Positions 705 to 60,676 of a stretch of 64,000 nt of DNA are shown here, piece after piece. Under the pieces are notes generated by a model that ran no database searches, was not told the DNA's origin, and was given only the letters and a program-made list of their open reading frames with translations. The stretch covers positions 63,374 through 127,373 of the forward strand of contig CADFMD010000002.1 of assembly GCA_902835305.1 (NCBI GenBank), given 5' to 3'. Position 1 is the stretch's first letter, and each line of letters opens with the position of its first letter. The stretch comes from Coriobacteriaceae bacterium. Its GTDB lineage: Bacteria > Actinomycetota > Coriobacteriia > Coriobacteriales > Coriobacteriaceae. Made by a program: the position numbers and the translations under genes.

Positions 705-851
705 GCTCACCATTAAGTCCATTTAGAACGGGTTTTCCAGGTGCCCGAGATTGACCTGAAAGAGGAGTGACGCGTACTTTGGTACGCGAGCGACGGCTTG
801 AAGGTCAAGGTCGGGTGCCTGGGAAAGCCGACACAACAGAGAGGAATACCC

Positions 852-3520: not shown

Positions 3521-3669
3521 ATCGAGCTCCTCCCCCTCAGAAAACTTCAACATTTGTCCATTATTACCCAGTTCGGCAGGATTGCTGCGGACATATCGGT
3601 TAACGGAGAAAGGAGGAGATGCGGAGAATGGAATGCGTTGCAGCCCCATCCCAGCGACATCCGGGAAAT

Positions 3670-3967
3670 GTCTAGATCTGTAACAGGTGGACCGTCTTTA
3701 ACCTTCCAAATGTTACAGATCGAGATCTTTCGGCACCGCGTCCAACCTTTGTCTCAATCTGTAACAGTTAGAGCGGTTTTTGGCCGTTAGATGTTACAGA
3801 TTAAGATATTCTCCAGCCCTGTCGTCAAACGTCTAAATCTGTAACAAGTAGACAGGTTTTCGGCCGTTAGATGTTACAGATCGAGATATTTTAGCGGCAG
3901 CCAACCTTCTGTCTCGATCTGTAACAGTTGCGAGGCCAAACGGCCCCTTGTTGTTACAGATCGAGAC
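3670..3967. repeat. Hairpin-repeat array 1: four 57-bp palindromic units (arms GTCT[ACT][GA]ATCTGTAACA / its reverse complement) separated by 23-24 bp linkers
   Basis: Units at 3670-3726, 3751-3807, 3831-3887 and 3911-3967; 16-bp arms are near-perfect inverted repeats around a semi-conserved ~25-nt loop (..AGAC.GGTTTT.GGCCGTTAGAT). Confidence 0.9.
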
Positions 3968-5105: not shown

Positions 5106-5242
5106 GTCTTGATCTGTAACAGTTAGACGTTCTCCAGGCCCCTAAACGTTACAGATTTAGACAAACCAGCGGCGCCCAGGTATTCGTCTCGATCTGTAAC
5201 AGGTAGACCGGTTTTTTGTCCCTAAACGTTACAGATCGAGAC
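5106..5242. repeat. Hairpin-repeat array 2: two 57-bp units with a 23-bp linker
   Basis: Units at 5106-5162 and 5186-5242 with the same GTCTYGATCTGTAACA arms as array 1. Confidence 0.9.
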
Positions 5243-5990: not shown

Positions 5991-6302
5991 GGCATCCTCC
6001 TCAAACTGATGGACCTCAATTTGAGCTTACGAGGAAGGTGGGCAGCCACGACCAGCGCGGGCAAAATAGGCCTCCGACTGCAAACCAGATACTGACCAAA
6101 CACTTGACGAAAAGCTTGATCGAAAATGCGCACCGCAACAAAACCGCAGGTAGACATAGACGGCCAACCCGCCCTTTTGAGCCAGATGCCCGCAGCCACC
6201 ACAGAAACAACAGGTGACCACAGCCCGAGAAGTCGACAAATGAACACCCGTACGTCGACAAACGAGCAAACTGCTCGCAAATCCGCAAGGAGTGTCCCCG
6301 AA

Positions 6303-6364
6303 TGCCGGCACAAAAGGAACGTCCCTAACTGTCGGCACTTAGGGACGTTCCTTTTGTGCCGGCA
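6303..6364. repeat. Perfect 26-bp-stem hairpin built from two inverted copies of the GCCGGCACAAAAGGAACGTCCC box (repeat family B)
   Basis: tgccggcacaaaaggaacgtccctaa / ctgtcggcac / ttagggacgttccttttgtgccggca; lies just 3' of gltD on its strand and may act as a terminator or operator. Confidence 0.85.
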
Positions 6365-6414
6365 GTTAGGGACAGCCCTTGCCGATTCGATTGTTGAATA
6401 TCTCCGTGACTACT

Positions 6415-12599: not shown

Positions 12600-12783
12600 C
12601 GCGATCCTCCCCTAGATATTTAGACAGTCAGTTGAATAGGCATAGTAGGGGCATCGGGGCGTCGTTGTGTTTCCCGCCCGTTTCGAAACAATCGCGTAAC
12701 GCACACCTTACGAGTGGGCACCGCCGACCTCAAGGGCGAAAACATAGGCCCCAAGTTCGACCTGCAAACTCACCTCTTCATAC

Positions 12784-13000
12784 ATCTCAATCTGTAACAG
12801 TAAGACCCAATTTCGACGACTAACTGTTACAGATTGAGATGTTTTCGAGAGACGGTTCCAAATGTCTCAATCTGTAACATGAAGGGCCGGTTTTTGCAGC
12901 TAACTGTTACAGATCGAGATTTTCCATAGGACCATTTCTTCCTGTCTTGATCTGTAACACCTAGACCCAATTTCCATCCCTAGTTAATACAGATCAAGAC
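12784..13000. repeat. Hairpin-repeat array 3: three 57-bp units with 23-bp linkers, in the divergent gltB/gpmA intergenic region
   Basis: Units at 12784-12840, 12864-12920 and 12944-13000; arms (A/G)TCT[CT][AG]ATCTGTAACA. Confidence 0.9.
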
Positions 13001-13165
13001 ATTTCGGCAATCCCCTTTCACCGTCCCATTCAAATACAACAATTTTGTTAGTCATGGTTAACTTTTTAGCATAAAACGGGTATCCTTTGCGGCGTCAAGC
13101 AAACGGCACGCACACCGTGCCAGATCAAGGAGGCCCCTATGGCGCACCGAGCAGACCGACAGACA

Positions 13166-15271: not shown

Positions 15272-15408
15272 GTCTCGATCTGTAACATCTAGACCCGCTT
15301 TTGATGTCTAGATGTTACAGATCGAGATCATTCCGAGGGACAGCTCCGTTTGTCTCGATCTGTAACAGGAAGACCCGTTTTGAGCCGTTAGACGTTACAG
15401 ATTAAGAC
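15272..15408. repeat. Hairpin-repeat array 4: two 57-bp units with a 23-bp linker, between convergent mntH and rubredoxin
   Basis: Units at 15272-15328 and 15352-15408; in unit 1 the stem extends into the loop (TCTAGAC...GTCTAGA). Confidence 0.9.
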
Positions 15409-15551
15409 AAAAGGTCGGCCGGACTCACAACAGACAGGATCGGCCAACAGCAACCGTGATCCCTTGGGGGCGGAGGAAAAGGGCCCCGGCCGAGAATTCG
15501 ACCGAGGCCCTTGGACAGAGCTATGTTCGGCTTTCGCCGTGTGTCTGCGAG

Positions 15552-16288: not shown

Positions 16289-16496
16289 AACAATCACTCC
16301 CCTAACGCGGGTTGGAACCTCATGGATGTATGTACCCACAAAAAAGGCGGCGCCCACAACGGACACCACCTTTGAGACATATGTGTCAAAACAGTATAAG
16401 CAAGATGAGACGCCCGCAGTTGCGGTGAAATAAGGACTGAATAGCCCCTCAAACAGGCAAAACAGTCCGTATTCCACCGCAACTTATACAGAACGC

Positions 16497-17971: not shown

Positions 17972-18048
17972 TGGTAGCCCGTACCAGATTCGAACTGGTG
18001 ATCTCCGCCTTGAGAGGGCGGCGTCCTAAACCGCTAGACGAACGGGCC
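17972..18048 (-). tRNA. tRNA-Glu (anticodon CUC)
   Basis: Cloverleaf folded by hand: GGCCCGT acceptor stem, anticodon arm CCGCC/cuCUCaa/GGCGG, TTCGAATC T-loop, encoded CCA. Confidence 0.8.
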
Positions 18049-18065: not shown

Positions 18066-18139
18066 TGGCTGGGATGGAGGGAGTCGAACCCCCATTGACG
18101 GAACCAGAATCCGCTGTCCTGCCATTAGACGACATCCCA
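18066..18139 (-). tRNA. tRNA-Gln (anticodon CUG)
   Basis: Acceptor stem TGGGATG/CATCCCA, anticodon loop uuCUGgu, GGTTCGACT T-arm, encoded CCA. Confidence 0.75.
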
Positions 18140-24829: not shown

Positions 24830-25431
24830 CTTCTTGCGGCTGGCTTGCGGATCGATGGGCGCAAACACCGACGTAAAATCGGGGTTGTTGAGCGCGTTAT
24901 CGAGGCTTGCGACCTCGGCGGCCTGATCGCTCTCGACCACCGGGGCAGCAGGCTGCGTGGGATCGGGAATAGCGGCAAAGAGACCGGACTGCGCAGGCTG
25001 AGGAACCGGCGTCGCAGGGGCCATGGGGTCGGGAATGCCGGCCATGGTAGGCTGCGGCGCGGCGGCGCCAGCCTGAGGCTGCTCCACGCGAGCGGTCACA
25101 GCCTGAACGGGCTCAAAACCCGCCGTGCCGGAAAGCGCAACATCGCTGGTGGGATTGTAGGCAAAGGGATCGGATGCCGGCTGTGCCTGATCTGCCGGCT
25201 GAGCGGGGGCCTGAGCAACAGGCTGGCCCTCTGAATCCGGAGTGGCGAAACGACTGCCCTGGACGACTGTCTGCGTCTTGGGGGCATCATCGCCCGCACC
25301 GGAGGTACGGAAGTGGTTACCCACTGGTGCTCCTTATCGTCGTGCGTTTAAACTACATGAGCGCTTTGTATTTTAGCAGCATTAGCTTTACTGCACATAA
25401 GAAGCATGGCGGGGTTTGGTCCCACCGGCTG

Positions 25432-25544
25432 CGCACAGGGTTACCTCCCAAATCGTCCTCGGACATGTCGGCGCCCCCGCTGCGCGCTTCGCGCTGCGGG
25501 GGCGCCTCCGTCCTGCGGAAAGATTTGGGAGGTAATCCTGTGCG
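25432..25544. promoter_or_regulatory. Three-tier imperfect palindrome (~113 nt) between tkt and ftsE
   Basis: Outer 23-bp arms CGCACAGGGTTACCTCCCAAATC / GATTTGGGAGGTAATCCTGTGCG with one mismatch; inner 11-bp arms GGCGCCCCCGC / GCGGGGGCGCC. Confidence 0.6.
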
Positions 25545-25772
25545 CGGCCTGCGGCTACTATGGGGTCGCCGCGTGATCTTGGGGTGCTGCACATACAAAG
25601 TTGGGAGGGCTGAATTGCACGTTGCCGTACTGGGCCCTTTTCCCGAAGAAGGCCTTGCTTGATGCGGCACTGATTTTGCTGAAATATAAAAACAGGGGCG
25701 TCCTCTTTTTGAGGGCGTCCCTGTCTACGTCTATTTGCTATTGGCTTGTGGCCGATTTGAGCGGTGGTTGCT

Positions 25773-33498: not shown

Positions 33499-33721
33499 GG
33501 TAGGACTCCTTATTGGTCAGGCGCTGGTTACCGATCAGCGCATAAGGCGTCTTGGTTTCCGACCAAGACAACAAACTCGGCTATGGTACCACGGCGCCGC
33601 GCGTCCCACAAAAGGTTCACGGTCTTTTCGGAACGACACGAATCTGACCCATCGAAACACATCTCCACCGTTCCTTCAACTGGGAAAATGCCGTCCCCGG
33701 GGCCTGAGAAGGGCCCCGGGG

Positions 33722-44320: not shown

Positions 44321-44422
44321 TCACTGGGGACGTTCTTGAATGACTAGTCGTTGGGGACAGTCTTCGCGAAAAAGCTGCTGCAAGGACTGTCCCCCACTGC
44401 CGGCAGAAAAGGAACGTCCCCA
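44321..44422. repeat. Family-B GC-rich repeats: one inverted copy (44321-44362) and one direct copy (44382-44422)
   Basis: cactGGGGACGTTCTTgaatGACTAGTCgttGGGGACAgtc and caaggactGTCCCCcacTGCCGGCAgAAAAGGAACGTCCCC. Confidence 0.8.
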
Positions 44423-47309: not shown

Positions 47310-47625
47310 AAGTCAATAGCCATTGTATGCCCAAACGATGGGTCGGGAATACACCCCCTCCGCTTAACGGCACACGCCGCTTGGCGCAATGGGGACAGGT
47401 TGCTTTGTACCAATGACAAGGAGTGTCCCAAAGTGCCGGCACAAAAGGAACGTCCCCAAGTGCCGCAGAGTGGATAATCTCCCACTTTGAACCCCCAAGC
47501 AGGCCAAAAACGGAAGATTATCCACTCTCATTCTGTGGGCACTCATTTAAGTCTGTCCCCAATGAGTGCACCTAACTGCCACCTACAACAACGGAAGCGC
47601 CGATGTCTTGGCAACGACAGCGAAA

Positions 47626-47718
47626 ACCCGCCAGAGCGAGCAAGGTGCCTTGAAACGAGGCGGCATTGACCTTCTGGTCATGCCGCCGAAGTTGAAAGGC
47701 AGATTGCCGCGCTGGCGG
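47626..47718. ncRNA. Structured element, copy A (nested helices; a second copy lies at 59768-59896); strand unknown
   Basis: Outer stem CCCGCCAG/CTGGCGGG, middle GCCTTGAAA/TTGAAAGGC, inner GGCGGCAT/ATGCCGCC, with conserved loops; copy B keeps the same architecture with compensatory substitutions. Confidence 0.55.
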
Positions 47719-47762
47719 GTTTGCAGCGTCGACCGGTTACGCGGTTTGGTAAAACCGCGTAA

Positions 47763-48974
47763 CTAAATAAGCTTGAAGCCCTTGCGCTTGCCCACGGAGA
47801 GGGTGTCGCCCAGCTTGAGCGCGCTGGGGTCGATGTTGTAGCTCTTGGGAGCCACGGCCTCGCCATTAATCTTGACGCCGCCGCCGTCGATATCGCGACG
47901 GGCCTGGCCGGCGCTGGCCGAAAGTCCCAGATCCTTGAGCAGGCCGGCGAGGTAGATCTGACCCTCGTCGTTGACGGTCAGCTCGACATGCTTCTCGGGG
48001 AAGTCGGCGAGCTGGCCTTCCTTGAACACGCGGTCGAACTCGGCCTGAGCCTCGTCGCCGGCACCGGCGCCGTGGTAGGTGTCGCACAGGTCGCGGCCCA
48101 GGGCACGCTTGAGCTCATAGGGGTCGGCAGAGCCATCGGCCAAAGCGGCGTCGATCTTGTCGACCTCGGCCGGGGTGAGCGAGCTGGCCAGACGATAGTA
48201 CTTGCCGATCATCTCGTCGGGGATGGACATGGTCTTGCCGAACATATCCTTGGGGGCGTCGGTCAGGCCGATGTAGTTGCCATAGGACTTGGACATCTTA
48301 CGAACGCCATCGGTGCCCTCGAGCAGCGGCATGGTGAGCGCGATCTGGGGCTCCATGCCCATCTTCTCCATGAGCTCGCGGCCGGCGAGCAGGTTGAAGA
48401 GCTGATCGGTGCCACCCATCTCCACGTCGGCCTTGATCTGCACAGAGTCGAAGGCCTGCATCACGGGATACAGGAACTCATGCAGGGCGATCGGCGTCTG
48501 AGACTGGTAGCGCTTGGTAAAGTCGTCGCGCTCAAGGATGCGGGCAACGGTGAACTTGGAGCACACCTGCAGCAGACCGGCCAGATCCATCGACAGAATC
48601 CAGTCACCGTTGTGCACGATGGTGGTCTTCTCGGGGTCCAGGATCTTCATGGCCTGGCTCACGTAGGTCTCGGCATTGGCCTCGATCTGCTCCTGCGAAA
48701 GCTGCGGGCGGGTGGAGTTCTTGCCCGAGGGGTCGCCGATCAGCGCGGTGCCGTTGCCGATGATAAGGGTGACGTTGTGGCCCAGGTCCTGGAACTGGCG
48801 CATCTTGCGCAGCGGCACGGCATGGCCCAGGTGCAGGTCGGGGCTGGTGGGGTCGACGCCGAGCTTGATGTTGAGGGGCTCGCCCTTCTCAAGCTTCTTA
48901 CGAAGGTCGGCCTCGGGGACGATCTTCGCAGCGCCCGAGGTGATGATACGCATTTGCTCGTCAACAGACAGCAT
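47763..48974 (-). CDS. tyrS: Tyrosyl-tRNA synthetase
   Basis: HLGH and KMSKS class-I motifs, C-terminal S4 domain; RBS AAAAGGAGG. Confidence 0.9.
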   Translation of the reverse strand: MLSVDEQMRIITSGAAKIVPEADLRKKLEKGEPLNIKLGVDPTSPDLHLGHAVPLRKMRQFQDLGHNVTLIIGNGTALIGDPSGKNSTRPQLSQEQIEANAETYVSQAMKILDPEKTTIVHNGDWILSMDLAGLLQVCSKFTVARILERDDFTKRYQSQTPIALHEFLYPVMQAFDSVQIKADVEMGGTDQLFNLLAGRELMEKMGMEPQIALTMPLLEGTDGVRKMSKSYGNYIGLTDAPKDMFGKTMSIPDEMIGKYYRLASSLTPAEVDKIDAALADGSADPYELKRALGRDLCDTYHGAGAGDEAQAEFDRVFKEGQLADFPEKHVELTVNDEGQIYLAGLLKDLGLSASAGQARRDIDGGGVKINGEAVAPKSYNIDPSALKLGDTLSVGKRKGFKLI

Positions 48975-49070
48975 TGGGTATCCTCCTTTTGCTATAGCAC
49001 CCTCACCGGATACGGCGGTGCTGGAAGTCCATAAACTCTCATATGATAACAAACTGACGCGACGCGGCAC

Positions 49071-51056
49071 CTACGACAGGAAAATCCTCGTCCTGCCGCA
49101 CGCGTCAACGGCGACCGGCAGACGTGTACCGTCACGCTCGACCAGATAGCGTACCCGCCGACGACGCAAGCAGTCGCGGCAACGGACCTGTCCCGTCGCA
49201 TCGGTAGCGCAGACGCCCTCGGCGGTCAGCAGGCAGTGCTCGCACACCATAAGCTCGGGACGATCGGCGTCGACCGGACCCCAGACGCCGGGTTCAGCAG
49301 CCAGTTCGGCAATACGCTCCGCATCATTGCCGAGCAACTCGGCCGGCAAGTACACCCGCCCCGCACCGAGTTCGCGCAGCCAGGCAAGCGTGGCCCGATT
49401 CGCGCAGAACACCGGCGCCGCCACGTCAAACGTCACGCCCAGCTCGCGAGCGATCACCACCTGTCCTAGGTTGCGGCAGACGACGCGCCCGGCACGCTGT
49501 GTCAGTGAGCGGGTCCGGTCAGCGTCACCCGTGCGGCACACCTCGTCAAGCACCACAGCGGCGTCGGACAAATCGAGTTCTCCGCGCGGGTCGGCATCCA
49601 TCAGCTGCCAAGCAAAAACCATGCGAGCGGGAGCCGTGCACTCCACCAACTCCGTCGACGCACCGCCATCCACCGCAACGTCCTCAAAGGGCAGTACCTC
49701 AACGGCACGTGCAACGGGCGCAATCGCATCTGCCTCGGCCCGCATGCGCTCCAACACCGTTGCCGTTTGCCCCAGCACGCCGGCACTGCGAATCAGGTAC
49801 ACCTCGCAGCCCGCGTCCACCTTACGCTTGCAATGCACGACGACGCGCTTCCCCGCTGCGGCATCCACCGGGCAGGGCACCTGCGGCCAGCGCTTGGGCA
49901 CATCGGGACGCGCGTCGGCACCCGGATAGAACCGAATCTCGAGCGTGTCACCCGCCGCCACGGCGGCATCGAGCTCGACGGTCACTTCCTCGTGGCCAAC
50001 GGCCACCAGGCGTCCCACGCGCACACCTTGGTTGATCGCACGCTCAAAGCTCATAAGCTCGGCGCCCGAACGCCCCCGCAGATACGCGTCGGTAAACCCG
50101 CGGTTGAACGACCGGCCCAGCTCGCGTTCAAGCTCTTCCACGGCACCGGGGTCCCACGCGCCGTCGCACAGCATATCGAGCGCCCGGCGCCACACCCGCA
50201 CCACGTTAAAGACGTAGTCGGGATTCTTCATGCGCCCCTCGATCTTGAGCGACGCCACGCCGGCATCTACAAGCTCGGGCAGATGCGCAATACCCAGATA
50301 GTCGCGCGGGCACAGCAGGCGATCTCCCTCGACGGCGACAACGCTCTGTCCCGCCTCGTCCACCAGGTCGTACGCCAGACGGCACGGCTGTGTGCATTCC
50401 CCGCGCATCGCCGAGCGCCCGCGTCTCAGGGCTGAGAACTCACAAGCACCCGAGTAGCCAATGCAGATGGCCCCGTGGCAGAACACCTCGATAGGCACGC
50501 CCGTACCGCACAAGGAGGCAATCTCGTCGACCGTCAGCTCGCGTGCCGTCGTCACGCGTTCGACCCCCAGCTCATCGGCGGCAAGCCGCACGGCGCCTTC
50601 GCTATGAGCGCCCGCCTGCGTGGACAGGTGAATCTCGACCCCGGGAATCGCCGCGCGCAGCGCGCAGGCCAACCCGGCATCGGCGACAATCAGAGCATCG
50701 GCGCCCAGCTCTAGTGCATGAGCTCCCAACGCCACCGCGTCGGACAACTCGTCGTCAAATACGAACACGTTGAGCGTTACGTACACACGCACGCCATGGG
50801 CATGCGCCACGGCGCAGCCGCGTGCAAACTCGTCGTCGGTAAAACCGTGCGCACTCACACGGGCGTTAAAGCCGCCCAACCCCGCATAGATGGCATCGGC
50901 ACCCGCGGCGATGGCCGCAAGCATCTGGTCGAGCCCGCCCGCCGGCGCCAGCAGCTCGGGCAGCGCCGCACCGGCAGCATCCAATCCAGTCTCGTATTGT
51001 CCGCTCGGCCCCATCGTCCGAATCGCCATCGACAAACTCCTTACCAAGGTATGCAT
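49071..51056 (-). CDS. Peptidase U32-family protein
   Basis: U32 core with conserved Cys (..VFCHGAICIGYSGAC..); exact start uncertain (alternative MAIRT.. or MGPSG..). Confidence 0.7.
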   Translation of the reverse strand: MHTLVRSLSMAIRTMGPSGQYETGLDAAGAALPELLAPAGGLDQMLAAIAAGADAIYAGLGGFNARVSAHGFTDDEFARGCAVAHAHGVRVYVTLNVFVFDDELSDAVALGAHALELGADALIVADAGLACALRAAIPGVEIHLSTQAGAHSEGAVRLAADELGVERVTTARELTVDEIASLCGTGVPIEVFCHGAICIGYSGACEFSALRRGRSAMRGECTQPCRLAYDLVDEAGQSVVAVEGDRLLCPRDYLGIAHLPELVDAGVASLKIEGRMKNPDYVFNVVRVWRRALDMLCDGAWDPGAVEELERELGRSFNRGFTDAYLRGRSGAELMSFERAINQGVRVGRLVAVGHEEVTVELDAAVAAGDTLEIRFYPGADARPDVPKRWPQVPCPVDAAAGKRVVVHCKRKVDAGCEVYLIRSAGVLGQTATVLERMRAEADAIAPVARAVEVLPFEDVAVDGGASTELVECTAPARMVFAWQLMDADPRGELDLSDAAVVLDEVCRTGDADRTRSLTQRAGRVVCRNLGQVVIARELGVTFDVAAPVFCANRATLAWLRELGAGRVYLPAELLGNDAERIAELAAEPGVWGPVDADRPELMVCEHCLLTAEGVCATDATGQVRCRDCLRRRRVRYLVERDGTRLPVAVDACGRTRIFLS

Positions 51057-51191
51057 TCACTCTGAAAAATGCCGTCTTCCAGCATACACGAGGCCTCGCG
51101 CGCCCCGTTTGGTTTATCGTGTAATAACTTATGTCCATCCTGCCCCGACGGCACATCCACCGTCCGGCACGACATACCTGGAGGTCAATAT

Positions 51192-53402
51192 ATGGGTCCT
51201 CGCCAACGACAGGGACGCAGCCGTTCAAAGACGCATGCTCTGCCCATAATCCTGCTCTCGTTTTTGGGCTTTTTGCTTATCGCGGGCGTGGCATTTGGCA
51301 TCGGCATGGTCGGCAACGTCAACCGCTGGCTGTCCGATCTGCCCGACTACACCGACGCCAACGCGTATCTGGTGAGCGAGCCCACCGAGATCGTCGACTG
51401 CAACGGCAACAAGATTGCGAGCTTCTACACGCAAAACCGCAAGTCTATCACCAAGGACGAGGTCTCCCCCTACGTGCTGCAGGGCACCGTTGACGTCGAG
51501 GACGAGCGCTTCTACGAGCACGGCGGTATCGACCTGTGGGGTATCGCGCGCGCTGCGGTGGCAACCCTCGGCGGCGGTCACGAAGGCGCCTCGACTATCA
51601 CCCAGCAGCTGGTGCGCAACACCATCCTGCAGGAGGAGCAGTTCGACTCGACCATCGAGCGTAAGGTGCGCGAGGCTTACATCGCCGTCAAGATGGAGGA
51701 TATGTACTCCAAAGACGAGATCCTCATGATGTACCTCAACACCATCTATTACGGCCACGGCGCCTACGGTATCGAGGCCGCCGCCGAGACCTACCTATCC
51801 AAGAGCGCCGCCGACCTCACCCTGAGCGAAGCCGCGCTGTTGATCGGCCTTCCCAACTCGCCCTCGCAGTACGACCCCACGGTCAACCCCGACCTGGCGC
51901 TGTCCCGTCGCAACAAGGTCCTCGACAACATGTTGCGCCTGGGCCACATCACGCAGGAGGAGCACGATGCCGCACAGGCCGAGCCCATCACCCTCAACGT
52001 GACCGAGATTTCGGGCAGCGGCGTCGACGTATACTCGCAGCCCTACTTTGTCGCCTATGTTAAGCAGCTGCTGGAGCAGGAGTTCTCGACCGACGTGCTC
52101 TTTAAGGGCGGTCTGACCGTCAAGACCACCATCGATCCCACGATGCAGCAGGTGGCAGAGAATGCCGTTCGCGAGCAGCTCGACACGCTCTCGCTCGACG
52201 GCCTGGACATGGGCATGGTCGTCGTCGACCCCAAGACCGGCTACATCAAGTGCATGGTGGGCGGCTACGACTACAACGCCGACGAGAACCACGTAAACCA
52301 TGCCACGGCCAAGCGTCCCGTCGGCTCCACCTTTAAGGCCTTTACGCTGGCAACTGCCATCCAAAACGGCATGAACCCCAACGTCACCCTCAACTGCAAC
52401 TCGCCGCTCAAGGCCAAGGGCACCACGACCGAGGTCCAAAACTACGCCAACCATAGCTATGGCAACATCACGCTTAAGCAGGCGACGGCATACTCCTCCA
52501 ACACCGGCTACATCCAGGTGGCGGAAGCCGTCGGCAACAGCAAGATCATCTCGCTCGTCAAAAAGCTCGGCATCGATCCCGCCAAGGACAACATCGAGGA
52601 CGTTCCCGTCATGACGCTCGGCACCGGCTCGATCTCGCCGCTCGAGATGGCCGCCGCCTACGCAACGTTTGCCAATGGCGGCTACTATCGCCAGCCGATC
52701 GCCATCACCGAGATTGACTCTCGTACCGGCTCGGTGCTGTACCAGCACACTGACAATCCCTCACAGGTGCTTACCGAGGGCGAGGCCGCCGCGGTCACCG
52801 ATGTTCTGTCCGGCGTCATGCAGGGCGGCGGTACGGGCGCTGCCGGTGCCCTAAGCGTCAACCAGCCCTATGCCGGCAAGACGGGCACCACCGACAACAC
52901 CACCAACCTGTGGTTCTGCGGCTATACCCCGCAGCTGGCGTGCGCCCTGTGGACCGGCTATTCCGCGGGCGAGATCCCCATCCAAAAGTACGGCACGGAC
53001 CTGCTGGGCGACAGCACCAACCTGCCTGTCTTTAAGCGGTTTATGAACACCGTTCTGACCGGTACCGAGCGCGAGGAGTTTGCGACCGGAACGGCGCCCA
53101 CCTACAAGAACAACAGCGTCTGGAAGTTCTACGGCACCAACAACACCAAGAAGTCGGAGAACGACGACAAGGACAAGGACGAAGAGGAAGAGGAAACCAC
53201 CACAACGACTACCACGACGACCACGACCACCGAGACCACGGGCGGCGACACCACCGGCGGCACCGGTACGACCGGTGGCTCGACGGGTGGCTCCACTGGT
53301 GGTTCGACCGGCGGCGATGGCGGCACGCCTACGCCTACGCCTACGCCTACGCCTACGCCCACTCCCGACCCCTCGCCCACGCCTGACGATACGGTCGGCT
53401 AA
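51192..53402 (+). CDS. Class A penicillin-binding protein (transglycosylase/transpeptidase) with a Thr/Gly/Pro-rich C-terminal tail
   Basis: GT51 motifs (EDERFYEHGGID, RKVRE), transpeptidase STFK and KTGT; tail encoded partly by an (ACGCCT)5 hexanucleotide repeat at ~53326-53360; RBS GGAGG. Confidence 0.85.
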   Translation: MGPRQRQGRSRSKTHALPIILLSFLGFLLIAGVAFGIGMVGNVNRWLSDLPDYTDANAYLVSEPTEIVDCNGNKIASFYTQNRKSITKDEVSPYVLQGTVDVEDERFYEHGGIDLWGIARAAVATLGGGHEGASTITQQLVRNTILQEEQFDSTIERKVREAYIAVKMEDMYSKDEILMMYLNTIYYGHGAYGIEAAAETYLSKSAADLTLSEAALLIGLPNSPSQYDPTVNPDLALSRRNKVLDNMLRLGHITQEEHDAAQAEPITLNVTEISGSGVDVYSQPYFVAYVKQLLEQEFSTDVLFKGGLTVKTTIDPTMQQVAENAVREQLDTLSLDGLDMGMVVVDPKTGYIKCMVGGYDYNADENHVNHATAKRPVGSTFKAFTLATAIQNGMNPNVTLNCNSPLKAKGTTTEVQNYANHSYGNITLKQATAYSSNTGYIQVAEAVGNSKIISLVKKLGIDPAKDNIEDVPVMTLGTGSISPLEMAAAYATFANGGYYRQPIAITEIDSRTGSVLYQHTDNPSQVLTEGEAAAVTDVLSGVMQGGGTGAAGALSVNQPYAGKTGTTDNTTNLWFCGYTPQLACALWTGYSAGEIPIQKYGTDLLGDSTNLPVFKRFMNTVLTGTEREEFATGTAPTYKNNSVWKFYGTNNTKKSENDDKDKDEEEEETTTTTTTTTTTTETTGGDTTGGTGTTGGSTGGSTGGSTGGDGGTPTPTPTPTPTPTPDPSPTPDDTVG

Positions 53403-53426
53403 GAAGTACGCGACTAAAGCCAACAA

Positions 53427-53465
53427 GGCCCCGAGCAGCTTATTGAACTGCTCGGGGCCTTTTAG
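53427..53465. terminator. Bidirectional intrinsic terminator between the PBP gene and argR
   Basis: GGCCCCGAGCAGcttattgaaCTGCTCGGGGCCttttag. Confidence 0.75.
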
Positions 53466-53586
53466 TTTGAAGCGACCTGGTGGGCGGTCTTTATACCGGC
53501 AAACAAAAAGGGGTACCGACCAACGTCGATGCCCCTTACAAGCCACTATGTCAGCGCACACAATGCCGAGCGCACGACCCGCACAC

Positions 53587-54024
53587 CTACTTGCGAGAAT
53601 TGCTCAACTTATTGATCAGCGCCTCGAGACGCTCGCCGTCCTCGGCCGTCTGGGCAATAACCAAAATCGTATCGTTGCCGGCAAGCGAGCCAAGCACATC
53701 GGGTAACTCTGCCGCATCAACGGCGGCGGCGATGCCGGAAGCCGTGCCAGGCTGAGCCTTGATCATAACCAGATTATCAGTACGCAGAACGCCCGTTACG
53801 AGCTCGGAAACCATACGCTGCAGGTGCAGGTCCTCTGCCAGAACATAGATGCCCTCAGGGAGCTTACGCAGCCCCATATCGGCAATATCGCGAGAGACAG
53901 TCGCCTGCGTGCAATCAAAGCCCATAGCACGGAGCTCATCGACCAGCACGCGCTGCGTGCGGACATCCTTATTGCGCACAATATCTCTAATGGCATCCTG
54001 GCGCCCATTGCGTTTTTTAGCCAT
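53587..54024 (-). CDS. argR: Arginine repressor
   Basis: Winged-helix N-terminal domain (QATVSRDI) and C-terminal oligomerisation domain; ~145 aa. Confidence 0.85.
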   Translation of the reverse strand: MAKKRNGRQDAIRDIVRNKDVRTQRVLVDELRAMGFDCTQATVSRDIADMGLRKLPEGIYVLAEDLHLQRMVSELVTGVLRTDNLVMIKAQPGTASGIAAAVDAAELPDVLGSLAGNDTILVIAQTAEDGERLEALINKLSNSRK

Positions 54025-54156
54025 ACAAACCCTCTCTCCAAAAGATGGCGGAGACAATCAATCAGTGATTGAATAGTTTAACGCTATTTGAAGGCTTTTG
54101 TGTATAAGAACGCATTTCGAAACAATTCTATGCAAGTTTGTTTCGTAATGAGCCGT

Positions 54157-55197
54157 TTAGGCGGTTTTTGCGCCCGTCCGGTTAAGAAAAGCTGCCAGAT
54201 GCGTACACATCACGCAGCGCGCGGGCTTGGCGCTGGCGATCGGCCCAAACAACAGACCGAGTCCCCGATGGTTATCCTTGAGCGCGGCGACCATCTGACG
54301 GGTTCGAGGCGCCTCGAGCATATCACGCATGCGGGCGGAACGCTCGATTGACGACACCCCATGCGGGCTCAGACACAAATTCTCGATGCAGGCGACCAGT
54401 CCGGCAAAGTAGAACTTTTGGCTTGCCAGCTTGAGCCGACCACCGCTATCTGCTTCCGAGAGTGAGTCCGCAAGCTCGTCGAGCGCTCGAGTGTCATCGG
54501 ATATCCTGGCATACATGGTGGGATCAAAGGCATCTGTAAGCTTAGGTGCCGCCGCGTGGAAACAAGCGTCGCCGCAGCCGGACACGAATCGTGCCTGCGA
54601 GAGCGCATAAGCCATAAACTCAACCGTACGGTACGCCTTGCCGCGCGACAGGCATGCCTCAAACAGCGGACGGCTATACATCACGCCAGAGGTCTGAGCG
54701 ACTAGGCCGCCCAAAATCAACTGGGGCAGCCCAGTCACCATAGAAGACTCGTCTTCTATGGCAATAGAGGCAGCATCCAAGACGCGCGAATGACGCTCGC
54801 GATGCGCATCGTATCGATCGAGCGACACCGAGGGGAGCACAATGTCTGCCGCAGTATCGCACGCGATATCGACCATCTTGGAAAGGGCCTGCGGAGCAAA
54901 CCACTCATCGGCGTTCATGGCGATGATTTGAGAGCCGCGCGAGGCATCAAAACCGGCACGAAGACAAGCGCCGCGCTTCGCGTCCTCGACGTCAATCAAA
55001 TCAATATGGATGTCCCTGTCGGCAGCAACTTGAAGCGAATGGCGCACACCGGGCGCAGCATCGCGGCAGACAACGACAATCTGCAAATCGTAGAGGTCTT
55101 GGTTCTGGATACTCTCGAGCGCACGCATCGCATAGCTGGGCGAACCTTCTACCACAAGGATCACCGAAAGTCGCGGATGCGAACCACGTCGAACCAA
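54157..55197 (-). CDS. Family-2 glycosyltransferase
   Basis: N-terminal LSVILVVEGSPSYAMRALESIQNQ typical of a GT-A fold; 346 aa. Confidence 0.65.
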   Translation of the reverse strand: MVRRGSHPRLSVILVVEGSPSYAMRALESIQNQDLYDLQIVVVCRDAAPGVRHSLQVAADRDIHIDLIDVEDAKRGACLRAGFDASRGSQIIAMNADEWFAPQALSKMVDIACDTAADIVLPSVSLDRYDAHRERHSRVLDAASIAIEDESSMVTGLPQLILGGLVAQTSGVMYSRPLFEACLSRGKAYRTVEFMAYALSQARFVSGCGDACFHAAAPKLTDAFDPTMYARISDDTRALDELADSLSEADSGGRLKLASQKFYFAGLVACIENLCLSPHGVSSIERSARMRDMLEAPRTRQMVAALKDNHRGLGLLFGPIASAKPARCVMCTHLAAFLNRTGAKTA

Positions 55198-55358
55198 ATT
55201 ATCCGTCCTCTCGACAGCAATGAATCAAACCGTGGTTCATGGTACACCCCGGCAATAAAAGCAATGAGACACCGGTTGCATTGCACGCCAAGAACAGATG
55301 TTGCACACGCGCAGCCCACAGATGACAGGTGTCGACGCACGACACGTCGAGCCCTCCC

Positions 55359-56198
55359 CTAGTCGAGCACGACAAGCTCGGCGGGATCGTAATCCACGCC
55401 CATAAACGCAAGGCCGCAGGCAGGAGCCGTGGGGCCCGCAGCGGTACGGTCGCAAGCATCGATAACCTCGCGCATCCACTCGGGTTCACGGCGATGCATG
55501 CCAATCTCGACAAGCGTGCCCACGATCGTACGGACCATCGAATGCAGAAACGCATTGCCCTCGATGGTAAACGTCAGGATGTCCTCGCCAAACGCAACCT
55601 CATGGCCAAATTCGGCACGCATCACGCAGCGATGCGTGGGTTTGCCAACGGCCGAGGCAACCTTGCAAAAGCTTTTAAAGTCCTGCTCGCCCAGCAGCGC
55701 GGGGCAGGCAGAAGACATAGCCTCAACATCCAAGGGATAGCGATGCCACCACACGGCACCGCGGGACAGCACGGGGCGCGCATCGCGATCGGCAATACGG
55801 TATGTATACGTACGGGAATGCGCGTCAAAGCGTGCAGAAAAGCCTTTACGGGCCCTGTAGACCTCGTTTATGGCGATATCTTTGGGCAGCAGGGCATCCA
55901 TGGCCCGCAGCCACCTACGGCGCGTCAGAGCGAGCTCAGCGTCCGTAACGGGCACGCTGATGTACTGAGCCACGGCATGCACGCCGGCATCGGTACGCCC
56001 CGCGCACGTCAGATCGATCGGGCGGCGAAGCAGCGTCTCGATGGCTCGACGTAGCTCACCAGCAACCGTCGTCTGTCCCGGCTGCTCGGCAAATCCGCTA
56101 TACGACGAGCCATCATAGGCCACACGAAATACGAGTGTGGCGTCAAGCTCGGAAATCGAATTGAAATCAGACGGCGCAGTCATGGGCGCTCCCAACAA
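55359..56198 (-). CDS. truA: tRNA pseudouridine(38-40) synthase
   Basis: VAYDGSSYSGF..GRTDAGVHA catalytic Asp motif. Confidence 0.9.
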   Translation of the reverse strand: MLGAPMTAPSDFNSISELDATLVFRVAYDGSSYSGFAEQPGQTTVAGELRRAIETLLRRPIDLTCAGRTDAGVHAVAQYISVPVTDAELALTRRRWLRAMDALLPKDIAINEVYRARKGFSARFDAHSRTYTYRIADRDARPVLSRGAVWWHRYPLDVEAMSSACPALLGEQDFKSFCKVASAVGKPTHRCVMRAEFGHEVAFGEDILTFTIEGNAFLHSMVRTIVGTLVEIGMHRREPEWMREVIDACDRTAAGPTAPACGLAFMGVDYDPAELVVLD

Positions 56199-56274
56199 AC
56201 AAGCAACGGTATCGCGACAAAAAAGAGGGGTACGCGAACGTACCCCTCGAATATAGCCTATGCAGACGGAAAGT

Positions 56275-56742
56275 CTACTCAGCGGTCTCCTCAGCAGGAG
56301 CTTCCTCGACGGCCTCGACCTTCTTGGGAGCAGCGGCCTTCTTGGGGGCCGGAGCAGCCTTCTTGGCCTTAGGCGTGCAAGGCTCGGTGACGAGCTCCAT
56401 GATAACGATGGGAGCGTTGTCGCCCTTGCGGTTGCCGAGCTTCATGATGCGGGTGTAACCGCCGTTGCGGTCCTGCCACATGCCCTGGGCAGCCTTGTCG
56501 AAGATCTCGGCAACGAGCTGCTTATCGCCGAGCTTGGCGATAGCCAGACGACGAGAGTGCAGGTCGCCTTTCTTGGCCCAAGTGATGATCGGGTCGACGA
56601 CCGAACGCAGCGCCTTAGCGCGGGTCTCGGTGGTCTTGATGCGGTCGTTCTCGAAGAGGGCCTTAGCAAGGCTCTTCTTCATGGCCTTGGTGTGGCTCGC
56701 ATCGGTGCCGAGCTTCAGGCCCTTCTTAACGTTGTGACGCAT
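56275..56742 (-). CDS. rplQ: 50S ribosomal protein L17 with an Ala/Lys/Pro-rich C-terminal tail
   Basis: L17 core; tail PKAKKAAPAPKKAAAPKK. Confidence 0.9.
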   Translation of the reverse strand: MRHNVKKGLKLGTDASHTKAMKKSLAKALFENDRIKTTETRAKALRSVVDPIITWAKKGDLHSRRLAIAKLGDKQLVAEIFDKAAQGMWQDRNGGYTRIMKLGNRKGDNAPIVIMELVTEPCTPKAKKAAPAPKKAAAPKKVEAVEEAPAEETAE

Positions 56743-56772
56743 GGTCTAGTTTCTCCTCAAATATGCGAAGCA

Positions 56773-57714
56773 TTAAGCCTTCAGGCTCAGGCCCATGGAC
56801 TCAAGCTTGTCCTTCACTTCCTCGATCGACTTAACACCGAAGTTACGGATGTTGAGCAGATCGTTCTCCGAGAACTCAACGAGCTGACGGACCGAGTGAA
56901 TGCTGGCGCGCTTAAGGCAGTTGTAGGAACGGACAGAAAGGTCCAGATCCTCGATCTGCTTGTCCAGCTCGGCGTTGTCGTTGGTGACCTCGGGAGCGAA
57001 GATCGAAGCCTCCTCCTCGACCTCGGGGGTCTCGGCAAGGTTCATAAAGGCAGCCATATGCTGGTTGATGATATTGGCAGCCTGGACCACGGCGTCGCGC
57101 GGAGCGATGGAGCCGTTGGTCTCGATCTCGAGGACAAGGCGGTCGTAGTCGGTGTGCTGACCGACACGGCAAGCCTCAACGAGCTTGGCGCAACGGGACA
57201 CCGGCGAGTACAGCGAGTCGACGTGGATCACACCGATGGGATCGTTGTCGCGCTTGTTAGCCTCGCCAGAGACATAGCCGCGGCCATAGCCGATGCGCAT
57301 GCTCATGGTGAGATGGCCGCCCTCGGTGAGCGTAGCGATGTGCTGCTCGGGGTTGACCAGCTCAAACTCGGACGGAATAAAGAAGTCCGCACCGGTGACC
57401 TCGCAGGGGCCGTCAACCGAGATGGTGGCGGTCGCCTCGTCGGTCGTGCCGAGAGCCCTGAAGACAAGACCCTTGACATTCAGGACGATGTCGGTGACAT
57501 CCTCGACCATGTTAGGGATGGTCATGAACTCGTGCTGTGCACCATCGATCTGAATAGCCTCGACGGCGGCACCCTCGAGCGAGGACAGAAGTACGCGACG
57601 AAGGGAGTTACCCAGCGTATCGCCGTAGCCACGCTCGAGCGGCTCGACGGAGACACGAGCAGACGTCTCGTTGATCTCTTCGACCTGAACCTGAGGCCTA
57701 ATGAATTCTGACAT
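56773..57714 (-). CDS. rpoA: DNA-directed RNA polymerase alpha subunit
   Basis: 313 aa; NTD and CTD consensus. Confidence 0.95.
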   Translation of the reverse strand: MSEFIRPQVQVEEINETSARVSVEPLERGYGDTLGNSLRRVLLSSLEGAAVEAIQIDGAQHEFMTIPNMVEDVTDIVLNVKGLVFRALGTTDEATATISVDGPCEVTGADFFIPSEFELVNPEQHIATLTEGGHLTMSMRIGYGRGYVSGEANKRDNDPIGVIHVDSLYSPVSRCAKLVEACRVGQHTDYDRLVLEIETNGSIAPRDAVVQAANIINQHMAAFMNLAETPEVEEEASIFAPEVTNDNAELDKQIEDLDLSVRSYNCLKRASIHSVRQLVEFSENDLLNIRNFGVKSIEEVKDKLESMGLSLKA

Positions 57715-57746
57715 GTATTACCTCCAGCCTCAGCAGCCCGGATGGA

Positions 57747-58343
57747 CTACTTAGAGTAGAGCTCGACGATGAGCTGCTCGTTGATATCACCGCTGATCTG
57801 CTCACGCGTCGGCAGAGCGAGCACGTTACCAGACAGCTTCTCGATATCGACCTCGAGCCAGCCAGGGACCTCAAAGCGCTCGGAGGAAATCAGAGCCTCC
57901 TTGATGGGGAGGAGGTCACGGAACTTCTCGCCGACAGCGACGACGTCGCCGGCCTTGACGCGGTAGGACGGGATGTCCACGCGCTTGCCGTTCACGGTGA
58001 AGTGACCGTGACGGACGGACTGACGAGCCTCTTTGCGGGTGCGGGCGAAGCCAAGACGGAAGACGACGTTGTCGAGGCGAGACTCAAGGATGATCATGAG
58101 GTTCTCACCGGTGACGCCGTTCATCTTGCGGGCCTTGTTGAAGTAGCCGTGGAACTGCTTCTCCAGAACGCCATAGATGAACTTGACCTTCTGCTTCTCG
58201 CGCAGCTGCATGCCGTACTCAGATTCCTTGCGACGGCGCTTGGGCTGACGGATAGATTCCTTCTTGCTGCTGTAACCGAGCTCAGCGGGATCGATCCCGA
58301 GCTGACGGCAGCGCTTAAGAACAGGAGTCCTGTCGATTGCCAT
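57747..58343 (-). CDS. rpsD: 30S ribosomal protein S4
   Basis: 198 aa; S4 domain. Confidence 0.95.
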   Translation of the reverse strand: MAIDRTPVLKRCRQLGIDPAELGYSSKKESIRQPKRRRKESEYGMQLREKQKVKFIYGVLEKQFHGYFNKARKMNGVTGENLMIILESRLDNVVFRLGFARTRKEARQSVRHGHFTVNGKRVDIPSYRVKAGDVVAVGEKFRDLLPIKEALISSERFEVPGWLEVDIEKLSGNVLALPTREQISGDINEQLIVELYSK

Positions 58344-58362
58344 ATTGATACGATCCTTTCAG

Positions 58363-58767
58363 TTACACGCGGCGACGCTTCTTGGGGCGGCAGCCGTTGT
58401 GCGGGATGGGGGTCTTGTCCTGGATGCTCGAGACCTCGAGGCCAGCAGCCTGGAGGGAGCGGATGGCGGTCTCACGACCGGAGCCGGGGCCCTTGACGAA
58501 GACGGAAACCTTCTTCATACCGTGCTCCATGGCCTGCTTGGCAGCAGCCTCGGCAGCCATCTGGGCAGCGAACGGCGTGGACTTACGGGAGCCCTTGAAG
58601 CCCACCTGGCCAGCCGACTTCCAGGAAATGACGTTGCCCTGGGGATCGGTGATCGAAACGATCGTGTTGTTGAACGTAGAACGAATGTGAGCCTGGCCCA
58701 CGGAAATGTTCTTACGGTCCGCGCGCTTCAGACGGGCAGCGCGAACGTTCTTCTTAGCAGTAGCCAT
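58363..58767 (-). CDS. rpsK: 30S ribosomal protein S11
   Basis: 134 aa consensus. Confidence 0.95.
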
Positions 58768-58781
58768 CTATCTAGCGCTCC

Positions 58782-59156
58782 TTATTTCTTCTTCTTAGCA
58801 CCGATCTGACGCTTCGGGCCCTTGCGGGTACGAGCGTTAGTGTGGGTGCGCTGGCCGCGGACCGGGAGGCCCTTGCGGTGACGAAGGCCGCGGTTGCAGC
58901 CGATGTCCATAAGGCGCTTGACGTTCTGGTTGCGCTCACGGCGGAGGTCACCCTCAACCATGATCTGGTTCTTATCGATATAATCGCGGATGGCGTTAAC
59001 CTCATCCTCGGTGAGGTCCTTAACGCGCGTATCCACGTTAACGTTGCACTCGACGCAGATCTTCGTCGCAGTGGTGCGGCCGATGCCGTAAATGTAGGTC
59101 AGACCGATCTCAACGCGCTTCTCACGCGGGAGGTCGACACCATTAATACGGGCCAA
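58782..59156 (-). CDS. rpsM: 30S ribosomal protein S13
   Basis: 124 aa consensus. Confidence 0.95.
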
Positions 59157-59170
59157 CGTAGTCTCCTCTC

Positions 59171-59284
59171 TTAACCCTGACGCTGCTTATGACGGGGGTT
59201 CTCGCAAATGACGAGGACCTTGCCATGGCGCCTAATGATTTTGCACTTATCGCACATCTTCTTGACCGAAGGACGTACCTTCAT
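59171..59284 (-). CDS. rpmJ: 50S ribosomal protein L36 (37 aa), absent from the ORF track
   Basis: Hand translation [37 protein letters not shown]. Confidence 0.9.
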
Positions 59285-59434
59285 CGTTCTTCCTTTCGGT
59301 AGCGCTCAAACTACTTCCCTACTATCTACTCGCCCAGCCGCAGGCGTTTAAAACTATGGCTGGTCTTCACACACAATCCGACCGTAGGTTGAGCTAAGCC
59401 TGCAGCCGGAAATGGAGTGCGTGTATGCGTGCCG

Positions 59435-59659
59435 CTATTTGTAGCGATAGGTGATGCGGCCGCGGGTCAGGTCGTACGGGGAAAGCTCCACGACAACCCT
59501 GTCACCGGGGAGAATACGGATGTAATTCATTCGGATCTTGCCAGAAATGTTGCACAGAACCGAATGACCGTTCTCGAGCTCGACCTTAAACATGGCGTTG
59601 GGCAGCGGTTCCTTTACCGTACCCTCGAGCTCAATTGCGTCTTCCTTCTTCACAAGCAA
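59435..59659 (-). CDS. infA: Translation initiation factor IF-1
   Basis: S1-like fold; [16 protein letters not shown].. Confidence 0.9.
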
Positions 59660-59767
59660 TCATCTTTCTCTAGAAAACGACAGCGATTGAGTATTCTACA
59701 ATACGCATGCACGTATCGTAGTATCTTCGTAATGGCTCCACAACTAAGCGGAACTTGTTACATTTGA

Positions 59768-59896
59768 GAAATGTAAAACAAAGCCGTTCCCTGATGCCCA
59801 AGATCGCCTTGAAATGAGAAGGCATAGACCTTGGGGTCATGCCTTCGAAATTGAAAGGCGAGGTTGGGCATCAGGGGGCGGCGACTTTTACATTTC
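59768..59896. ncRNA. Structured element, copy B, with an extra outer stem (GAAATGTAAAA/TTTTACATTTC); sits between map and infA
   Basis: Outer CCTGATGCCCAA/TTGGGCATCAGG, middle GCCTTGAAA/TTGAAAGGC, inner AAGGCAT/ATGCCTT; ~80% identical to copy A with compensatory stem changes. Confidence 0.55.
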
Positions 59897-60676
59897 ACCG
59901 CCTTGCAAGGAACACCAAGCACCCTGGGCATCCGTGGTGAGAATCACCGGACCGTCATTGGTAATGGCGACGGTGTTCTCGTAGTGTGCGGCGGGCAGGT
60001 GGTCGTTGGTCGTAACAATCCAACCGTCGGAGCCCGTGCTCACATGGTTGGAACCCATCGTAACCATCGGCTCGATGGCAATGACCATGCCGGCCTGGAG
60101 GCGAACGCCCCTCCCCTTCTTTCCATAGTTAGGAACGTTGGGGTCCTCGTGCATCACGCGGCCAATGCCATGGCCCACATAGTCACGAAGCACGCCGTAA
60201 CCGTGAGACTCGGCGAGGGACTGAACGGCGTAACCAACATCCCCGATATGGTTACCGGGAACAGCCTGCTCGATGGCAGCCTTAAGGCAATCGCGCGTGA
60301 CCTCGCACAGGGCCTTGGCCTCGGGCGTGGGTGTGCCGACAAAAAACGTCCAAGCGTTATCGCCAACCCAACCGTCGACAACGGCTCCCGTATCGATGGA
60401 GATGATATCGCCATCGCGCAGGATCATGTCGGGGTTGGGAATACCGTGGACCACGGCATCGTTAATCGATGCGCAAATGGTACCGGGGAACCCGCCGTAA
60501 CCCTTAAAGGCCGGGGTGCCGCCATGCATACGGATAATCTGCTCCGCGAGCTGATCGAGCTCAAAGGTCGAAACACCAGGGCGCACCATGGCTCCAACGT
60601 GGCGGAGCGCCATCTTAGATAGCGCTCCTGCCTTCTTCATCTGCTCGATTTGCGTTGCAGACTTAATCTTGATCAT
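59888..60676 (-). CDS. map: Methionine aminopeptidase type I
   Basis: 262 aa consensus. Confidence 0.9.
   Translation of the reverse strand: MIKIKSATQIEQMKKAGALSKMALRHVGAMVRPGVSTFELDQLAEQIIRMHGGTPAFKGYGGFPGTICASINDAVVHGIPNPDMILRDGDIISIDTGAVVDGWVGDNAWTFFVGTPTPEAKALCEVTRDCLKAAIEQAVPGNHIGDVGYAVQSLAESHGYGVLRDYVGHGIGRVMHEDPNVPNYGKKGRGVRLQAGMVIAIEPMVTMGSNHVSTGSDGWIVTTNDHLPAAHYENTVAITNDGPVILTTDAQGAWCSLQGGEM

Follow-up and report, generated by a model that had tools for sequence, protein, structure and literature searches.

A Collinsella-specific family of long palindromic intergenic repeats, probably mobile, found next to stop codons

Several hairpin-forming miniature inverted-repeat transposable elements (MITEs) are known in bacteria, namely Correia/NEMIS of Neisseria, ERIC/RU-1 of enterobacteria, YPAL/RU-2 of Yersinia, and bcr1 of Bacillus (PMC3184786). 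Here, we describe a family of palindromes in a 64,000-nt stretch of contig CADFMD010000002.1 from a Coriobacteriaceae bacterium. This whole stretch is called the window, and its forward reading is the + strand. Copy A lies between tyrS and ade, copy B between map and infA, and a diverged copy C between copA and copZ. We propose that the three are Collinsella-specific mobile non-coding palindromes of ~100–130 nt, MITE- or repetitive extragenic palindrome (REP)-like, which probably act as hairpins or terminators in 3′ untranslated regions (UTRs), and we put the probability of this reading at about 0.65. Among known elements, the hairpin-forming MITEs (Correia, ERIC/RU, and bcr1) and the pneumococcal SPRITE (PMC3184786) come closest, followed by the mosaics of REPs known as bacterial interspersed mosaic elements (BIMEs). 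Like the hairpin-forming MITEs, the Collinsella elements are 100–170 nt long, non-coding, multi-copy, intergenic, and apparently co-transcribed with their neighbors; the whole element is one long imperfect palindrome, its presence is polymorphic, and B has a short direct repeat. Unlike them, the outer stems vary between subfamilies while the apical core is conserved, no related insertion sequence (IS) is known, the composite unit that contains A has no detectable duplication, and the elements lie 0–5 nt from stop codons with a gene-linked polarity.

Copies A and B are both present at the positions reported by a sequence-only reading of the window. A 54-nt degenerate core (GCCTTGAAAYGAGNNGGCATNGACCTTNNGGTCATGCCNNCGAARTTGAAAGGC) matched the window twice (47647–47700 and 59806–59859) and had no match in 100 shuffles. 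BLAST aligned 68 nt of A and B at 80.9% identity (E = 5e-11), and the 66-nt core common to A (47620–47725) and B (59766–59887) is 81% identical; the earlier figure of ~80% holds for this 66–68-nt core and not over the full ranges quoted with it, for which a global alignment gives 71% (68 of 96 columns). Each copy folds as a single long imperfect hairpin of 40–50 bp, with −72.3 kcal/mol (z = −10.2) for A (47620–47725) and −86.2 kcal/mol (z = −12.2) for B (59765–59900), values that no shuffle equaled. All the stems given by the sequence-only reading are present in the copies, and its statement that the differences preserve pairing is correct for the core: the nine differences there fall into compensatory changes at three base pairs (one C/G to U/A, and GC/GC to AA/UU), a single base in a bulge, and two in the loop, so every difference at a paired position is compensatory. 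It does not extend to the outer stems (CCCGCCAG... and CCTGATGCCCAA...), which are unalignable and represent swapped stems rather than compensatory substitutions. The conserved middle helix GCCTTGAAA/TTGAAAGGC exists as 5 bp (GCCUU/AAGGC) followed by purine-rich internal loops, and GACC/GGTC, described as a loop, is a 4-bp apical stem with a tetraloop. The consensus of a K-turn or loop-E motif was unmatched on inspection of the purine-rich loops, which are fully closed in variant L093 (L numbers denote the loci compared), and a small reading frame within the hairpin (ATG at GGTCATGCC) is not kept in variants. No Rfam family, including Collinsella-1 and the ribosomal leaders, matched A, B, or C at the gathering threshold, and at E values up to 10 there were chance matches alone (e.g. 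miRNA and snoRNA models, 14–21 bits).

The map/infA spacer was compared among 29 contigs encoding identical InfA. Twenty-three have no B (104-nt spacer), four have B (229–232 nt), and two have short unrelated hairpins. The sequence of the empty site is ..GAGAAATGTAA|CAAGTTCC, also given as GAAATGTAA|CAAG, and in the filled site AAATGTAA stands on both sides of a 120–122-nt insert. An 8-bp direct repeat flanks B in 22 of 22 copies checked, a signature of the kind that the sequence-only reading had named as a sign against an RNA gene. Because map is 95–97% identical to that of the window in filled and empty alleles alike, the polymorphism is recent. The extra outer stem described for B is present, but one of its arms is made of the last map codons (GAA ATG TAA) and only the partner arm is inside the insertion. 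At the left junction, the direct repeat and, next to it, an inverted copy of itself read TTACATTT-GAG-AAATGTAA. The two contigs with short unrelated hairpins at the B site (L202 and L206, spacers of 143–146 nt) have the same junction, consisting of the map end, the insert, an inverted target copy (ACATTTC), and AAATGTAA again, a layout that suggests an insertion hot spot or a mechanism that would duplicate the target in inverted form.

These alleles bear on the idea that B is a leader or attenuator of the infA-rpmJ-rpsM-rpsK-rpsD-rpoA-rplQ operon and A a regulator of ade. B belongs to a ribosomal gene cluster, where 106 nt separate it from the downstream infA, and a ribosomal leader (L31-Coriobacteria) does occur in the window, but B is missing from 23 of the 29 contigs with identical InfA, whose map is 96% identical, and it is therefore not conserved at the orthologous position. 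It is moreover an insertion with flanking repeats, and the same core is found behind ~20 unrelated genes. As far as the sequence tells, the infA transcript probably excludes B, since an extended −10-like motif (TGTAGAAT) follows it. We consider the leader hypothesis hardly credible: the cis-regulator option of the sequence-only reading is unsupported because most contigs with identical InfA do without B. The family is no dedicated regulator of infA or ade, and the "structured RNA" upstream of the infA operon, as a dispensable mobile repeat, is a false lead removed.

The distribution of the family was examined with the pattern TTGAAAYGAG N22–32 CGAARTTGAAA, which fixes the internal loops only, in one genome per prokaryotic species. 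At least 118 stretches matched; among the matches listed, to which the following counts also refer, all but two belong to Collinsella or Coriobacteriaceae, and those two are chance matches. More than 116 Collinsella contigs have the core, and it takes just two forms, A and B. The B form is confined to map/infA, and the A form occupies tyrS/ade in no more than seven loci and ~20 other genomic sites besides; an H module (the long hairpin) of A type is found in ~90 Collinsella loci. UMGS289 and HGM04255 each have two A copies per genome, and second copies were found inside single 8-kb loci in several cases. One 0.9-Mb record of Collinsella aerofaciens has 11 matching places, with no copy in its first 50 kb. 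The ~20 distinct sites, these 11 places, and the three copies in the window agree with the multi-copy nature of MITEs. The source of the window is C. aerofaciens or a close relative, its A unit being 96% identical to that of C. aerofaciens TSDC17.2-1.1, and many contigs terminate inside the A unit, i.e. assemblies break there. A phage or plasmid origin was rejected: viral contigs gave 0 matches and phage records none, and the lone "plasmid" match is a mislabeled piece of chromosome. The latter, NZ_OY725717.1 (L207 is its positions 1–50000), is the 0.9-Mb "plasmid 6" of C. aerofaciens TSDC17.2-1.1; it bears the housekeeping genes recA, ftsK, der, miaA, lexA, and tyrS and is evidently a chromosome piece, not a plasmid. 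Among the options raised by the sequence-only reading, the structured MITE is favored, since A is dispersed over ~20 sites and present or absent in near-identical strains and B is an insertion polymorphism with an 8-bp repeat.

Alignment of 75 A copies with their flanks gave a conserved block of ~190 nt, whose order on the window + strand is the spacer (..GGCAACGCCGATGTTTTGGCAACGAC), AGCGA, hairpin H, GCAGCGTC, 5 nt, and the small hairpin S (GTTACGCGGTTTGGTAAAACCGCGTAAC) (Table 1). S is kept beside H at unrelated sites, with compensatory variants, and shares its last base with the tyrS stop codon (47763–47765, TAG, minus strand). The tyrS 3′ end was compared among 80 metagenome contigs with TyrS 92–100% identical to that of the window. 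A classical native terminator (GGCCGCAGCCGGGAATCCCGACTGCGGCC then TTTTT) stands 30 nt past the stop codon in ~37 of the 80, and in ~42 S is fused to the stop codon (TAG|TTACGCGG.. or TAG|TTCCGCCG..) and followed by one of several H variants; the S-fused alleles, including that of the window, have lost the native terminator. The unit is positioned after the native terminator in L177 and L189, S occurs without H in L120 and L138, and nested or tandem forms are found in L193 and L187. Strains with 99–100% identical TyrS differ in the presence or absence of A at this site. The filled/empty pair L035/L068 was not clean.

Table 1. Features of the repeat family in the window
Feature	Position (nt)	Strand	Basis or remark
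Copy A, an H module (long hairpin) of the dispersed A-type repeat	47615–47731 (model core 47641–47706)		Fold, inverted repeat, 97.4 bits
Copy B, 122-nt palindromic insertion, map/infA	59766–59887 (model core 59800–59865)		Filled versus empty sites, 82.2 bits
Copy C, diverged third member, copA (15–704)/copZ (853–1073)	729–830 (core 747–812)	+	Covariance models, fold
Small hairpin S (GTTACGCGGTTT GGTA AAACCGCGTAAC), part of the A unit	47736–47763		Perfect 12-bp inverted repeat
Conserved A-unit spacer (..GGCAACGCCGATGTTTTGGCAACGAC)	47590–47614		Consensus of copies
Accompanying small repeat modules, tyrS/ade spacer	47387–47581		G and E hairpins
Left 8-bp direct repeat TTACATTT flanking B	59758–59765		All 22 B copies checked; single copy at empty sites
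Right 8-bp direct repeat TTACATTT	59888–59895		Minus-strand reading AAATGTAA, last map codons and TAA stop

A covariance model (R1) was built from A and B and scanned, as the sequence-only reading had proposed; it revealed diverged relatives in other loci and the third copy in the window, C, which scored 20.6 bits with R1 and 25.4 bits (E = 2e-4) with a second model (R2) searched against the window. C is ~75% identical to a variant (L052, 1916–1980) that occupies an A-type frame. The variants retain the frame AGCGA..GCAGCGTC and S, yet differ in their outer or inner stems, all of which are still paired. Among 22 distinct members, 97.4% of the cells are paired, compared with 87.9% after shuffling and 24–42% with slid partners, and 12 of 23 pairs change on both sides; this alignment was fitted to the model and is biased toward structure, but the stem swaps are plain in the raw sequences. 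The structural part of the earlier claim is stronger with more sequences. Template-switch repair between the arms of a DNA palindrome (quasipalindrome mutagenesis) can produce apparent compensatory changes with no selection on RNA, and covariation alone is for this reason no proof of it. In the copA–copZ spacer of one contig with identical CopZ (L210, 545–700, compared with window 704–853), the hairpin of the third copy is inverted, adjoins the copA TGA, and has other flanks; it has flipped or been re-inserted at this locus.

The elements are closely associated with stop codons. Of 20 distinct A sites, 15 have an opposite-strand reading frame (≥100 codons) whose stop lies −1 to +5 nt from the S end, and the repeat flanking B includes the map stop codon. 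Variants also start at stop codons, as in L035 (TAG|TTCGGC), the second copy in L052 and L029 (TAA|TCG), and copA of L210 (TGA|AGC). At the 15 A sites, B, L035, L052/L029, and L210, the strand that matches the model is antisense to the gene whose stop is touched. A pair of copies facing one another lies between convergent genes in L052, as also in L029, and the polarity therefore follows the gene and not the direction of replication. Tandem and convergent genes are about equally common as the left neighbors of A sites. TAG as a special target was rejected, as it already accounts for 43% of the annotated stops in the C. aerofaciens record and ~60% in the window.

Here, we propose how the elements may spread and act. 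The modules would be moved by an enzyme acting in trans; judging by the 8-bp repeat at B, its mechanism may involve a staggered cut or a core site. A would be an H module embedded in a composite of S, H, spacer, and G hairpins that spreads en bloc, and the inserted element would be transcribed as the 3′ UTR of the upstream gene. The hairpin of 40–50 bp, which in A and B is followed by a short U-run, most likely terminates transcription or forms a barrier where the RNA ends, and at tyrS the element seems to have replaced the native terminator. On the gene strand, the U-runs are GGCGGGUUUUCGCU in A (..CUGGCGGG UUUUCGCU) and GGCUUUGUUUUACAUUU in B (..GGC UUUGUUUUACAUUU); a simple terminator scanner was unable to score stems of this length. 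We infer the terminator or barrier role of H with S from these sequence features with moderate confidence. A duplex of 40–50 bp is a natural substrate of RNase III, and the hairpin may also be a target of this enzyme. That the hairpins are ordinary intrinsic terminators, immobile and alike by common descent or gene conversion, would account for their position after stop codons, for the GC-rich stems and U-runs of A and B, and for the replaced native terminator of tyrS. It would not account for near-identical 190-nt units behind ~20 unrelated genes, strain-level presence and absence, the 8-bp duplication at B, nested copies (L193), or the assembly breaks inside the unit, and we regard it as very improbable.

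A number of observations weigh against a mobile 3′-UTR hairpin. As to mobility, an autonomous partner or transposase was not found, in loci whose all-against-all BLAST was confounded by orthologous genes. No duplication of ≥7 nt flanks the composite A unit, with nothing over the control level, H within it is flanked by CAGCG..CAGCG only, and the "empty" tyrS alleles still hold other repeat modules. The "empty" map/infA allele could be a deletion between direct repeats, as an alternative to insertion. The termini of the palindromes, which are conserved in MITEs, differ among A, B, and variants in the same slot: the outer stems are the least conserved and the apical core the most conserved part, the reverse of what terminal repeats of a MITE would show. 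C is kept in nine of ten contigs with identical CopZ and lies 25 nt past a stop codon with a polarity opposite to that of the other copies (sense). As to the terminator role, variants L128 and L131 have no U-run, and the L035 variant lies upstream of a normal terminator. Finally, the hairpin of the mRNA strand is ~9 kcal/mol weaker than that of the opposite strand in 67 of 68 unique copies, and the fixed G·U pairs are all on the non-mRNA strand. This asymmetry keeps alive two other readings, a folded DNA strand as the substrate (as for REPs with REP-associated tyrosine transposases (RAYTs), or attC) and an antisense RNA.

In the first of these, selection would act on a folded DNA strand, the hairpins being single-stranded substrates of a REP/RAYT-like HUH transposase or an attC-like site. 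The better folding of the window + strand in 67 of 68 copies and its fixed G·T wobbles fit this idea, as do the conserved tip with varying stems, the covarying small hairpin S, the absence of a terminal-repeat or duplication signature in the composite unit, and the use of these hairpins by IS110-type elements as targets, as for REPs (PMC1525189). The elements also resemble integron attC sites in being imperfect palindromes (60–140 nt) directly after reading frames, in which structure outlasts sequence and one strand folds better. In S, however, a GTTRRRY-like box precedes a RYYYAAC-like box (GTTACGC...GCGTAAC), which is the reverse of the inverse-core/core order R″(RYYYAAC)...R′(GTTRRRY) of attC; the upstream genes are housekeeping genes and not cassette arrays, and there is no integrase context. 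The polarity tracks the adjacent gene and not replication, with facing copies in L052 and L029, the 8-bp direct repeat at B is not a product of HUH transposition, and no link to a RAYT or integrase was found, though none was searched for genome-wide. On this evidence, a single-stranded substrate is an unlikely explanation of the family. In the second reading, the window + strand of H would give rise to a small RNA that is antisense to the neighboring gene at its 3′ end. The + strand folds better and is the sole strand with G·U pairs, and such a transcript could end at S and the A/U-rich stretch after it, but no promoter-like site was found around A or B, no RNA family matched, C has the opposite polarity, and the element is mobile and dispensable. 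An antisense RNA is accordingly quite improbable.

A further possibility, which we think doubtful, is a mobile element that homes to gene ends, with strand-specific insertion at or near the stop codon and a hairpin able to replace the terminator. Its targeting might use complementarity between the end of the element and the target, and homing would fit the conserved tip, the interchangeable outer stems, and the better-folding non-mRNA strand. If true, this would be a mechanism of transposition or recombination undescribed for MITEs or REPs.

Returning to the MITE/REP-like palindrome as the preferred reading, the family was compared with known elements. Its size and lack of a transposase agree with MITEs, as H is 100–130 nt and the composite is ~190 nt with small modules, and the reading frames are incidental and unconserved. 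Membership in the strict sense fails because the termini vary and no partner IS was identified, conservation being at the hairpin tip instead. Nearby, only one kind of IS was seen, an IS110-type element for which H is the target. The elements share with SPRITE a similar size as interspersed repeats, a terminator-like fold, and a bias to gene 3′ ends (PMC3184786). They differ in having no sequence relation, in belonging to another phylum, in their far longer hairpins (40–50 bp) and modular composites, and in lying beside tandem as well as convergent neighbors. In common with REPs and BIMEs, they are extragenic palindromes in mosaics with other modules, located in 3′ UTRs and targeted by the IS110 family. 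REPs, of 20–40 nt, have a 5′ GTAG in common and a RAYT gene linked to them, whereas H is 100–130 nt with no conserved GTAG, so its size and motif do not fit this class. Unusual traits of the family are the abutment to stop codons, the gene-linked polarity, the conserved tip with swappable stems, the inverted target copy at B, and the asymmetric folding. The finding is real and ordinary in kind, a mobile palindromic intergenic repeat.

No description of this family was found in the literature searched, and a repeat family of Collinsella, a common genus of the human gut, appears to have been undescribed so far. Metagenome assemblies break at its copies, and it makes strains differ in their 3′ UTRs and in the spacers between cistrons (tyrS–ade, map–infA, and copA–copZ); it can also replace native terminators and serve as the landing pad of an IS110-family element. 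The natural filled and empty alleles are a ready-made test of what a 45-bp hairpin on the stop codon does to termination, mRNA decay, and translation.

Elsewhere, IS110 elements use REP sequences as targets (PMC1525189, PMC11208160, PMC11187229). The element in Collinsella is an IS110/IS1111-type IS (L061, 3478–4928; Pfam DEDD_Tnp_IS110 and Transposase_20) with the subterminal inverted repeats ATGACCCAATCCG / CGGATTGGGTCAT. In 14 loci its insertion point is precisely GAC|AGCGA, at the base of H and the right edge of the A spacer; the same right junction is found in L020, L022, L045, L047, L062, L075, L079, L082, L085, L089, L106, L115, and L116. These insertions are at several distinct genomic sites, often at contig ends, and the A-type repeat appears to be a specific target of the IS. 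A group II intron was rejected as the multi-copy neighbor, as Rfam gave no match and Pfam shows an IS110-family IS.

The tyrS/ade spacer contains other repeat modules. G hairpins with the loop AAGGAACGTCCCCAA lie at 47418–47438, 47445–47465, and 47553–47581, with an inverted copy at 47387–47398, and an E hairpin lies at 47467–47528. In other A units, G hairpins are found to the left in varying number with covarying stems, sometimes together with an E hairpin, and both modules also stand alone elsewhere. With its S, H, G, and E modules, the spacer is a BIME-like mosaic of at least four repeat families. In the window, the G hairpins occur at 1440–1486, 6280–6387, 44384–44419, and 47387–47581, alone, as a long palindrome (6280–6387), or beside the A unit; with their common loop and covarying stems they form an independent repeat family.

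Further repeats were observed in the window. The palindromic repeat TCTCGATCTGTAACA / TGTTACAGATCGAGA is clustered at 3665–3891, 5106–5162, 12782–13004, and 15273–15414 as 22-nt units of alternating orientation with spacers of 11–27 nt, and these clusters resemble REP/BIME arrays. An F hairpin (AGTTGCGGTGAAATA...TATTTCACCGCAACT) lies at 16418–16484. In other strains (L209–L211, L213, and L214, at about 945–1020), it makes up a polymorphic insertion (~87 nt, present or absent) between copZ and a csoR-like repressor gene, absent at 1073–1122 of the window, and it is also found at the tyrS 3′ end of L139. At 25422–25554, there is an inverted repeat with 33-nt arms that are 88% complementary and 67 nt apart. 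The Rfam matches of the window at the gathering threshold are the L31-Coriobacteria leader at 33506–33541 (minus strand, 35.1 bits) and two tRNA genes at 17975–18048 and 18069–18139 (both minus strand).

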